From: Escherichia coli
GTDB taxonomy: Bacteria; Pseudomonadota; Gammaproteobacteria; Enterobacterales; Enterobacteriaceae
Assembly: GCF_003334255.1 (NCBI RefSeq)
Contig: NZ_QOWU01000129.1
Direction: 5' to 3' (one strand)
DNA length: 2,959 bases
Position 1 is the first letter of the stretch. Each line of letters begins with the position of its first letter. Made by a program: the position numbers and the translations under genes. Below the pieces are notes generated by a model. That model worked only from the letters and a program-made list of their open reading frames with translations. It was not told where the DNA came from and made no database searches. Positions 842-2,959 of the stretch are shown piece by piece.

Positions 842-1307
842 AGGCAAACTTGTCATTTTTTTAATTACCCTTTGTTTATTTGTTGTTTACCTTGGGTTTG
901 ATAACAATTCAAATTCTGACATCGTATTTTATGGACATAAAACACCAAAGAGCGTTGAGATATATCTTTCTGAAAAAAATATTATTTATAAAATAATTAA
1001 TGACCAAAAAATTAGTAGAGGGAATGGTCATTTTATAAGTATAATGGTTAATAATTACAGGACGCACTGTGGAGTGGTTGATATAAATCTTAATTTTTTC
1101 AATGATATTCTTTATAGCGTGCGATTAAAAAACATTAGTAAACTGGAGAATATGGAGTTCTGCGCTACAAAACAACGGGTGTATTTTAGTGATAAAAACA
1201 AGAAGGCTAGTTATAAAATAATTAATTATGGAGACTATTATGATGTTGATTATTATGATAACAATTTGAAAAATGAAGTTTTTGACTGGATTGGTAAATG
1301 GTCATAA
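825..1307 (+). CDS. putative cognate immunity protein of the Rhs-CT toxin; small protein with N-terminal signal-anchor / TM helix
   Basis: 160-codon ORF, ATG 825 to TAA 1305-1307, with a strong SD and a start that overlaps the upstream stop by 17 nt (translational coupling). The N-terminus [32 protein letters not shown] has a positively charged n-region followed by a ~17-residue hydrophobic stretch. The region is extremely AT-rich. Functional call rests on synteny with the toxin, not on recognised homology. Possibly ydcD-like (160 aa) from memory; unverified. Confidence 0.7.
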
Positions 1308-1384
1308 TGAACAACACCAGAAAGAGAAAAATATAAAATACATACAGAAAGACATGAGAGCAAGGGACGGGGCAGGGCAAGATC

Positions 1385-1416
1385 ATGAAAATTGTGATGT
1401 AAATCACGATTTTCAT
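1385..1416. repeat. inverted repeat / hairpin (14-bp arms, 4-nt GTAA loop); candidate weak intrinsic terminator or protein-binding palindrome
   Basis: ATGAAAATTGTGAT (1385-1398), GTAA (1399-1402), ATCACGATTTTCAT (1403-1416). The arms pair along all 14 positions with a single G-T (G-U wobble in RNA) at 1393/1408. It lies 77 nt downstream of the immunity-ORF stop and is followed by CTTTGCTTT. The stem is AT-rich, so a terminator role is uncertain. Confidence 0.45.
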
Positions 1417-1419
1417 CTT

Positions 1420-2640
1420 TGCTTTAACGCCTACAGGTGATCAAAATTTAACCTTTGGAATAACTAAAAAGATAAAAAAGGACGCCAGGTGAGTATTCAA
1501 AGTTTGCTTGATTATATTTCAGTGACCCCTGATATACGACAACAAGGAAAGGTTAAACATAAATTATCTGCTATTTTGTTTCTCACCGTATGTGCAGTAA
1601 TTGCAGGTGCCGATGAGTGGCAGGAAATTGAAGATTTTGGACATGAAAGACTTGAATGGCTAAAGAAATATGGTGATTTTGATAATGGCATTCCGGTCGA
1701 TGACACCATTGCACGCGTTGTGAGTAACATTGACAGTTTGGCCTTTGAAAAGATGTTTATTGAATGGATGCAGGAGTGCCATGAAATCACTGATGGTGAA
1801 ATTATAGCAATAGATGGAAAGACCATAAGAGGCTCCTTTGATAAGGGAAAAAGAAAAGGAGCAATCCATATGGTGAGTGCATTCTCGAACGAAAATGGTG
1901 TTGTACTGGGGCAGGTGAAAACGGAAGCCAAAAGTAATGAGATTACAGCCATTCCAGAGTTGCTTAACCTACTGTATTTAAAGAAAAATTTGATAACCAT
2001 TGATGCTATGGGCTGTCAGAAAGATATCGCTTCGAAGATCAAAGATAAAAAAGCAGATTATCTTCTGGCAGTAAAAGGCAATCAGGGGGAATTACATCAT
2101 GCATTCGAGGAAAAATTTCCTGTAAATGTGTTTTCTAATTATAAAGGCGATTCGTTTAGTACGCAGGAGATAAGTCATGGAAGAAAAGAAACACGTTTGC
2201 ATATTGTCAGTAACGTAACGCCTGAACTTTTGTGATTTTGAATTCGAATGGAAGGGATTAAAAAAGCTTTGTGTAGCATTGTCATTCAGGCAGAAGAAAG
2301 AAGATAAATCAGCAGAAGGTGTAAGCATCCGATATTATATTTCATCAAAGGATATGGATACTAAAGAATTTGCACATGCTATCAGAGCGCACTGGCTGAT
2401 CGAGCACAGTCTTCATTGGGTGTTAGATGTAAAAATGAATGAAGATGCCAGCCGGATAAGAAGAGGAAACGCAGCCTAAATAATATCTGGAATAAAGAAG
2501 ATGGCACTGAATTTATTAAGAGATTGCAAAGACATTAAGGGTGAAGAGGAAAAGAAAGAAGGCTGCGTTAAACACAGGGAAAGATCATCAGAAGTTCACT
2601 TTTTGTACTAAACAATTCGCATTTTATGTTTAAAAATTGA
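1420..2640 (+). mobile_element. degenerate ISAs1-family (H-repeat-like) insertion sequence; element ends NOT mapped, coordinates approximate
   Basis: Inferred from the decayed ISAs1-type transposase gene it contains (1489-2633). Terminal inverted repeats were not identified by eye. Confidence 0.4.
1489..2633 (+). pseudogene. ISAs1-family transposase (H-repeat-associated-protein-like), disrupted by two frameshifts and one in-frame stop
   Basis: Frame 1 (GTG 1489 to TGA 2233-2235) encodes a 248-aa N-terminal part with clear similarity to the second copy at 2719 and, from memory, to E. coli H-repeat-associated proteins (YhhI/YdcC/YbfD type). Motifs include ILFLTVCAVIAGADEWQEIEDFG, YGDFDNGIPVDDTIARVV, IAIDGKT, SNEITAIPELL, ITIDAMGCQKDIA and LAVKGNQG. 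Homology continues in frame 2 from ~2234 ([13 protein letters not shown]...RYYISS...[29 protein letters not shown]), is interrupted by in-frame TAA at 2477-2479, continues (IISGIKKMALNLLRDCKDIKG), then shifts to frame 3 near 2540-2544 (KRKRKKAALNTG...) and ends at TAA 2631-2633. Reconstructed length is ~380 codons. Possible RBS AAGGA at 1477-1481. Confidence 0.85.
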
Positions 2641-2706
2641 GATATTCCTTATTACCTAAAGCTGTTTTTTATTGCTTACACATGATCAAATACTCCTTAC
2701 ATAATT

Positions 2707-2712
2707 AAGGAG
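2707..2712 (+). promoter_or_regulatory. Shine-Dalgarno (AAGGAG) for the transposase ORF starting at 2719
   Basis: AAGGAG at 2707-2712, 6-nt spacer, ATG at 2719-2721. Confidence 0.6.
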
Positions 2713-2718
2713 AACAAA

Positions 2719-2959
2719 ATGGAACTTAAAAAATTGATGGGACATATTTCTATTATCCCCGATTACAGACAAGCCTGGAAAATGGAACATAAGTTATCGG
2801 ATATTCTACTGTTGACTATTTGTGCCGTTATTTCTGGTGCAGAAGGCTGGGAAGATATAGAGGATTTTGGGGAAACACATCCCGATTTTTTGAAGCAATA
2901 TGGTGATTTTGAAAATGGTATTCCTGTTCACGATACCATTGCCAGAGTTGTATCCTGTA
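2719..2959 (+). CDS. ISAs1-family transposase / H-repeat-associated protein, N-terminal 80 codons (3'-partial, runs off window)
   Basis: Not in the supplied ORF track because there is no stop before the window end. My translation: [80 protein letters not shown]. It is open through 2958 and is near-identical, from memory, to the N-terminus of E. coli H-repeat-associated proteins (YhhI/YdcC/YbfD paralog group; the paralog cannot be distinguished from this fragment). Strong SD upstream. Confidence 0.9.

Follow-up and report, generated by a model that had tools for sequence, protein, structure and literature searches.

Two open reading frames and one broken gene

Do two open reading frames (ORFs) between the end of an Rhs gene and ydcC in Escherichia coli encode two proteins, or are they pieces of a single broken gene? 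The question is raised by a stretch of 2,959 nucleotides from assembly GCF_003334255.1 (contig NZ_QOWU01000129.1; the whole stretch is referred to here as the window), in which ORFs of 248 and 66 amino acids are listed at 1489-2235 and 2279-2479. An earlier note, made from the sequence alone, had read both as parts of a decayed transposase gene of the ISAs1 family of insertion sequences (ISs). We find that window 1373-2574 is almost certainly the dead 5' part of ISEc26, an ISAs1-family element of the "H-repeat" type, and that it corresponds to the K-12 pseudogene yncI. Upstream of the remnant lie the RhsE toxin tip and the ydcD gene that goes with it.

Both ORFs match NF033564, the NCBIfam model for ISAs1 transposases, above its cutoff of 70 bits: the first with 292.8 bits (E = 2.9e-87) over model positions 1-218 of 314 and the second, colinear with it, with 81.1 bits (E = 7.9e-23) over positions 240-300. 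When YdcC, the product of the intact neighboring gene, was used as a tblastn query, homology could be followed in frame 1 starting at 1489 and continued in frame 2 starting at 2234; the match crossed an in-frame TAA at 2477-2479 (RGNAA-stop-IISGIKKMALNLL) at a position where YdcC has Glu. A DNA search of complete E. coli genomes identified a gene in O157:H7 genomes that bears the name "ISEc26 family transposase" and shares 98.6% identity with window 1441-2576 (1136 bases); the identification as ISEc26 follows the RefSeq name "ISAs1-like element ISEc26 family transposase." These matches greatly exceed what chance would give and uphold the assignment to a decayed ISAs1-family transposase.

We aligned the window base by base to the intact ISEc26 of strain EC4115 (O157:H7), a 1305-bp element (L002 2933-4237) with one 390-codon ORF (L002 3048-4220; protein WP_000027427.1). 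Records used for comparison are labeled L001 (K-12), L002 (EC4115), L003 (55989), L004 (2013C-4991), L005 (D217-5), L006 (2003-3014), and L009 (PigCaeca_2). Window 1373-2574 (1202 bp, plus strand) corresponds to positions 1-1205 of the EC4115 element, from which it differs by 12 substitutions and three indel events. Frameshift-aware comparison with an intact relative had been proposed as a check, and both the YdcC search and the EC4115 alignment return one colinear gene. The two ORFs are colinear with a single intact 390-amino-acid gene and, as the earlier note advised, should not be annotated separately. An origin of the segments in unrelated genes is ruled out by the colinear 98.6% identity to that one gene.

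The element starts upstream of the ORF, at a left terminal inverted repeat (GCAGGGCAAGATCATGAA; 1372-1389, plus strand, with the element boundary at 1372/1373). This repeat was located by comparison with the EC4115 pair, in which GCAGGGCAAGATCATGAA and TTCATGCTCTTGCCCTGC (L002 2932-2949 and 4221-4238) are 18 nucleotides long and 94% complementary. An independent ISEc26 relative (92% identity; L009, in an O-antigen cluster) has no match outside these two ends. No right inverted repeat is present in the window, and no such repeat pair lies within 1300-2720. A whole ISAs1 element has two terminal repeats, of which the window copy retains only the left one; the window therefore holds a fragment of ISEc26 rather than a complete ISAs1 element, and with one end only the fragment cannot be mobilized. 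Terminal repeats in this family are approximately 14 to 22 bp long and start with CAGGG, and target-site duplications are 8 to 10 bp (ISfinder figures). The sequences that flank ISEc26 in EC4115 (GACGGG and GGGGGG) are uninformative on target duplication, and the window copy lacks its right end.

Three point lesions in the transposase gene

The first coding segment (1489-2226, plus strand, frame 1) comprises codons 1 to 246, encoding DDE_Tnp_1_assoc and the DDE domain up to two-thirds of its length. It ends at the first lesion, a C inserted at 2227 that changes GAATTTTGTG to GAACTTTTGTG relative to EC4115 and after which frame 1 terminates at a TGA (2233-2235). The earlier note had correctly followed frame 1 to this TGA and predicted a shift into frame 2 but placed that shift within 2228-2236; the inserted base lies one position outside this interval.

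The second segment (2228-2538, plus strand, frame 2) spans codons 247 to approximately 350, as judged by tblastn and by the repaired translation described below. Within it lies the second lesion, a G-to-T change at 2477 that converts GAA (Glu) to the TAA at 2477-2479; the note had read this stop as well. The third lesion is a 5-bp deletion that leaves a single GGGTG (2539-2543) of the GGGTGGGGTG tandem found in the intact gene and shifts reading to frame 3; because the intact gene carries GGGTG in tandem, the exact position of the deletion within the repeat is ambiguous. A second shift near 2540-2544 had been predicted, in agreement with this result. The third segment (2541-2574, plus strand, frame 3) encodes VKRKRKKAALN and ends one base into the following codon; it is the last ISEc26-derived sequence, so that ISEc26-derived coding reaches codon 363 plus one nucleotide, of 390 codons.

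When the C was removed, the G restored, and GGGTG reinserted, the repaired translation was that of the ISEc26 transposase through codon 364, with seven substitutions (I13T, D28A, I89M, D163Y, K201E, A291T, and V360A). It matches PF13808 (DDE_Tnp_1_assoc) at residues 8 to 94 (E = 6.5e-31) and PF01609 (DDE_Tnp_1) at residues 102 to 342 (E = 4.8e-29). The three DDE-region motifs, which had been described as preserved, were located at 1804-1824 (IAIDGKT, frame 1), 1993-2013 (ITIDAMG, frame 1), and 2390-2419 (frame 2) and are conserved in YdcC; VKRKRKKAALNT is read at 2541-2576 in frame 3. As judged from DDE transposases in general, these motifs would carry the catalytic residues.

Could the gene still be decoded despite its interruptions? 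The frame 1 sequence CUU-UUG-UGA contains CUU-U, at which a +1 slip would bring the ribosome back into the homologous frame, so that programmed recoding near 2227-2233, followed by readthrough of the stop codon, might yield a functional product. CUU-U is the slippery motif of prfB. In the window, however, the codon after CUU is a sense codon rather than a stimulatory stop, and no Shine-Dalgarno-like stimulator lies upstream. In intact ISEc26 and in the paralogue YdcC, a single ORF runs without interruption, indicating that genes of this kind are not recoded. Beyond the proposed slip, the window copy still has the TAA and the 5-bp deletion and lacks the last 27 codons, and with the right inverted repeat missing there is no transposable substrate. 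We consider a recoded functional gene extremely improbable; rather, the dead ISEc26 remnant is predicted to be unable to make transposase.

The same lesions recur across E. coli genomes

Frameshifts and stop codons can also be sequencing or assembly errors in a gene that is truly intact. The earlier note had raised this explanation and described the frameshift sites as rich in homopolymers; the lesions lie in T- and G-rich surroundings. No result backs it, and neither indel changes the length of a homopolymer. Diagnostic strings for the inserted C, the TAA, the 5-bp deletion, and the junction between ISEc26 and the downstream element ISEc5 were present in all seven dead copies compared (the window and six genomes), from laboratory, human, and animal-associated sources, while the intact EC4115 copy has the wild-type strings. 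Four dead copies lie at the pptA locus (the window, MG1655, ES5 from frog-farm sediment, and HKUOPY1 from giant panda feces), and three lie at the yafV locus (55989, D217-5, and 2003-3014).

A search with the 3' half of intact ISEc26 extended this comparison. It matched 2555 genomes, 318 of which cover at least 80% of the query; six of these were sampled, and all six are 100% identical and annotated as intact (four labeled O157:H7 and two with no serotype in the organism name). Truncated copies occur in approximately 2,200 complete genomes. All 38 that were sampled align query bases 1 to 440 to 436 bases at 98.0 to 98.2% identity, the signature expected of the +1, the -5, the TAA, and one further single-nucleotide polymorphism (SNP).

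Because identical lesions are found in independent assemblies, sequencing error is excluded as their source, contrary to the possibility that the note had left for resequencing. The 3' end of the gene is, moreover, replaced by another IS at a precise junction. An intact gene hidden behind assembly errors thus has a vanishingly small probability. Relative to the intact orthologue, the window copy carries a +1 insertion, a nonsense codon, a -5 deletion, and a 3' truncation, each recurring in independent assemblies, and we regard it as a pseudogene. Every dead copy examined, whether at pptA or at yafV, has the same lesions, which also supports the description of the insertion as old and inactive. 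Their distribution indicates that the lesions predate the spread of the surrounding block over many lineages and both loci.

ISEc5 interrupts ISEc26 and replaces its 3' end

Homology to ISEc26 stops at 2574 (2576 if two bases of chance identity are counted), and the alignment collapses wholly from 2577 onward. The counterpart of window 2575-2700, with identity of up to 100%, is the DNA immediately 5' of ydcC in strains lacking the ISEc26 remnant (e.g., 2013C-4991). This is the left end of ISEc5 (CAGGGAAAGATCAT...; 2575-2959, plus strand, with ydcC from 2719), which interrupts ISEc26 and constitutes its fourth lesion. ISEc5 is 1291 bp long in K-12 (L001 6575-7865), starting with CAGGGAAAGATCAT (window 2575) and ending with CTTGCCCTG.

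Absent from the window are 100 bp of ISEc26, made up of 27 codons (stop included), two bases of codon 364, and the right inverted repeat. Since the ISEc5 insertion removed the 3' end, the reading frame can be reconstructed only to codon 363/364 of 390. The earlier note had placed the gene at 1489-2633 with at least three lesions and a still-reconstructable frame; the ORF start at 1489 and the lesions stand (there are in fact four), but the 3' end and the completeness of the frame do not. The interval 2575-2633 is noncoding ISEc5 left-end DNA that is open in frame 3 by chance.

The missing sequence is retained in strain 2003-3014 (yafV locus), where the 100 bp and the right inverted repeat lie directly downstream of ISEc5. 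The two junctions read GCGTTAAACA joined to CAGGGAAAG... and ...CTTGCCCTG joined to GCGTTAAACACATG, and GCGTTAAACACATG occurs once in the intact EC4115 gene. A perfect 10-bp direct repeat, GCGTTAAACA, flanks ISEc5 on both sides in 2003-3014 (L006 3925-3934 and 5225-5234) and is single copy in EC4115. The window retains the left copy of this target-site duplication (2565-2574, plus strand), and the right copy is absent from both the window and K-12. The 10-bp duplication shows that ISEc5 transposed into ISEc26 at codon 363/364, a nested transposition. A genome paper says of Rhs-associated H-repeats that their transposition "has not been observed" (PMC3032704); the duplication in 2003-3014 is direct sequence evidence of past H-repeat transposition in E. 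coli.

Downstream of ISEc5 in K-12, 55989, and D217-5, we looked for the remainder of ISEc26 and did not find it. The right flank of ISEc5 in K-12 is GGCATTATTG, leading to pptA. In 55989 (L003 5395-5455) and D217-5 (L005 5195-5255), both at the yafV locus, the right end of ISEc5 is degenerate (GTCTTACCCCG versus ATCTTGCCCTG), the ISEc5-like copy has an internal stop, and the ISEc26 remainder is deleted along with approximately 75 bp of O157:H7-type flank.

Fate of the 248-codon ORF

A pseudogene may retain a function in part, and the ORF at 1489-2235 might still be expressed and have kept a role, perhaps that of a trans-acting inhibitor or regulator of YdcC, the transposase of the adjacent ISEc5. 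The ORF is open in all seven dead copies, with no further disrupting changes, and its start codon and the upstream left-end sequence are kept; a reported association of "yncI" with adherence in a pangenome study, left unexplained by its authors (PMC11540155), could be read in the same direction. The predicted 248-codon product consists of the N-terminal domain and a partial catalytic core without the motif that bears the third acidic residue.

The pattern of substitution points the other way. Relative to the intact gene, the remnant carries seven nonsynonymous changes and one nonsense change versus one synonymous change, which looks like relaxed constraint rather than purifying selection, and I13, D28, and D163 are altered although they are common to intact ISEc26 and YdcC. 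That nearly all differences change an amino acid fits decay, on numbers too small for a test; among the seven dead copies there are only approximately eight variable sites, too few for a selection test. Promoter-like sites in the window do not exceed those in shuffled sequence (4 found versus 5.8 expected), and no such site above chance lies upstream of the ORF. Because YdcC is only 56% identical, cross-regulation is speculative. We therefore consider continued expression with a retained role very unlikely, and we see only a slim chance that the ORF is expressed and has been kept for a regulatory function of the truncated transposase it encodes, such as damping ISEc5 through YdcC.

Proposed history of the locus

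The transposase gene was destroyed by four events, namely, the three point lesions and the transposition of ISEc5. The loss of GGGTG is of the slippage type, and ISEc5, carrying ydcC, jumped into codon 363/364 and made the 10-bp target duplication. A block consisting of the Rhs tip, ydcD, dead ISEc26, and ISEc5 would then have moved between the yafV-side and the rhsE/pptA-side Rhs loci by homologous recombination, and one crossover inside ISEc5 would account for the loss of the distal 100 bp of ISEc26 in K-12.

Recombination between the loci is most likely the cause of that loss, as far as a few informative sites can tell. The yafV-type and pptA-type ISEc5 copies differ at approximately 35 sites in their first 575 bp. 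At the rhsE/pptA locus, the ISEc5 copies of ES5 and HKUOPY1 combine stretches of both types over the first approximately 575 bp, which suggests recombination or gene conversion between the ISEc5 copies of the two Rhs loci. From position 39 on, the K-12 ISEc5 has the same base as the resident pptA-type copy of 2013C-4991 (L004) at all variable sites.

Several points weigh against this account or narrow it. The pptA-type identity of the K-12 ISEc5 from position 39 requires either that the crossover fell within the first 38 bp or that its trace was erased later by gene conversion, and the recombination route as a whole depends on few informative sites. No intermediate with only some of the lesions, such as would order the four events, was found; intermediates may lie among approximately 30 records with at least 99% identity and less than 80% coverage.

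Relation to known elements and existing annotation

Complete E. coli genomes, including K-12 MG1655, W3110-type, and J53 strains, match the 2959-bp window at 99.9%. Compared with an MG1655 record (NZ_CP032667.1), the window differs by three SNPs over 2959 bp, at 2089, 2360, and 2934. The first two lie inside the pseudogene and give K201E and A291T in the conceptual translation, and the third lies in ydcC. The source of the window is therefore a close K-12 relative and not that exact record.

The NCBI Prokaryotic Genome Annotation Pipeline (PGAP) carries the feature in MG1655 as pseudogene D8B36_RS11625 ("ISAs1 family transposase; frameshifted; internal stop"), which occupies 1489-2633 in window coordinates; this is the same locus and extent. 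VanOrsdel et al. (PMC6001520) place the small-protein gene yncO between "ydcD / yncI," from which the name of the K-12 pseudogene follows. A 2024 study (PMC11540155) describes MG1655 yncI as a pseudogene with a premature stop and the O157:H7 Sakai copy as full and annotated as an ISEc26 family transposase. The feature is thus already annotated and already in print, and the interpretation of the window, while correct, adds nothing to the existing annotation of or literature on yncI.

What is new is minor. It includes the base-exact lesions and an annotated 3' end that overshoots into ISEc5: PGAP runs the pseudogene 59 bp into ISEc5 in one record (to window 2633; L001 6633) and 41 bp in others (to the equivalent of 2615; L003 4174 and L005-L008 3975), without marking the junction. 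With two end positions given for one pseudogene, the annotated 3' end is arbitrary. Also new at this level is the shared state over approximately 2,200 genomes (38 sampled) and two loci, and probably the finding that a nested insertion, marked by a 10-bp duplication, caused the truncation. The result has little import beyond annotation hygiene. The two ORF fragments are best kept as one pseudogene that ends at 2574, where ISEc5 starts. The presence or absence of "yncI" in pangenome studies (e.g., PMC11540155) is really a contrast of dead versus intact ISEc26 that tracks lineage (O157:H7 versus the rest). The nested insertion is also a tidy example of how tandem H-repeats beside Rhs elements originate.

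Among closely related known elements, the O157:H7 ISEc26 is 98.6% identical to the window copy where the two overlap (1.2 kb) and shares its left inverted repeat and its upstream neighbors (Rhs tip, ydcD, and yncO). It differs in having an uninterrupted ORF and both repeats, whereas the window copy carries the inserted C, the TAA, and the 5-bp deletion and lacks the last 100 bp. The chromosomal locus differs as well: in EC4115 the element adjoins yafV, not pptA, which neighbors the K-12 copy. ISEc5 resembles ISEc26 in family, CAGGG...CCCTG ends, similar size (1291 bp), a single transposase ORF, and domain order. Unlike the remnant, it is intact in K-12, and with 56% amino acid identity between YdcC and the ISEc26 protein, it is the interrupter of ISEc26 and not its duplicate. 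The remnant also shows the NCBIfam match, the DDE_Tnp_1_assoc/DDE_Tnp_1 order, and the CAGGG start of the terminal repeat that characterize the ISAs1 family (prototype ISAs1, from Aeromonas salmonicida), and its sister ISEc5 made a 10-bp target duplication; unlike ISAs1-family elements proper, the window copy is a nonfunctional, one-ended remnant.

Neighboring genes and minor observations

In the MG1655 annotation transferred to window coordinates, the 3' part of the gene for an RHS core protein truncated at its N terminus runs to 841, followed by ydcD (825-1307), yncO (1222-1407, minus strand), the ISAs1 family pseudogene (1489-2633), and ydcC (from 2719; "ISAs1-like element ISEc5 family transposase"). 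ES5 and HKUOPY1 have a full-length Rhs gene upstream, whereas that of K-12 is N-terminally truncated. In the window, GC content drops sharply within the Rhs C-terminal region, from 0.62 (1-300) to 0.35 (301-1372), and this drop coincides with the end of the conserved Rhs core (...PDPIGL... motif). ydcD overlaps the end of the Rhs ORF by 17 bp, the usual layout of a toxin tip and its immunity gene. A scan of the window against Rfam matched no family.

The gene yncO encodes 61 amino acids (PMC6001520) and starts at 1407, inside the left end of ISEc26, from which it reads outward over the left inverted repeat and into ydcD, whose 3' end it enters in antisense orientation. The yncO start codon is therefore IS derived, and presumably its promoter is as well. 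Terminator-like sites are slightly enriched in the window (3 versus 0.7 expected). Among them is a hairpin at 1385-1416 (plus strand) with a 14-bp stem (ATGAAAATTGTGAT / ATCACGATTTTCAT) that matches a terminator-like consensus. It overlaps the inner end of the left inverted repeat and is perfect in EC4115, with one mismatch in the window; it could be a candidate block on readthrough into the transposase gene or a candidate binding site.

Strain 2013C-4991 carries a solitary second copy of the ISEc5 left-end sequence, CAGGGAAAGATCATC (L004 2835-2855), approximately 160 bp upstream of the real ISEc5 left end. An IS1 fragment adjoins this copy, which may have been left by another rearranged H-repeat. 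The 92%-identical ISEc26-like element of PigCaeca_2 (L009 2700-4041, in the O40 O-antigen cluster) is frameshifted, with an internal stop. It is inserted in another ISAs1-family transposase gene, right after its IPELLNILDIK codons, and is thus a second case of nesting of ISAs1 elements, here among O-antigen glycosyltransferase genes.

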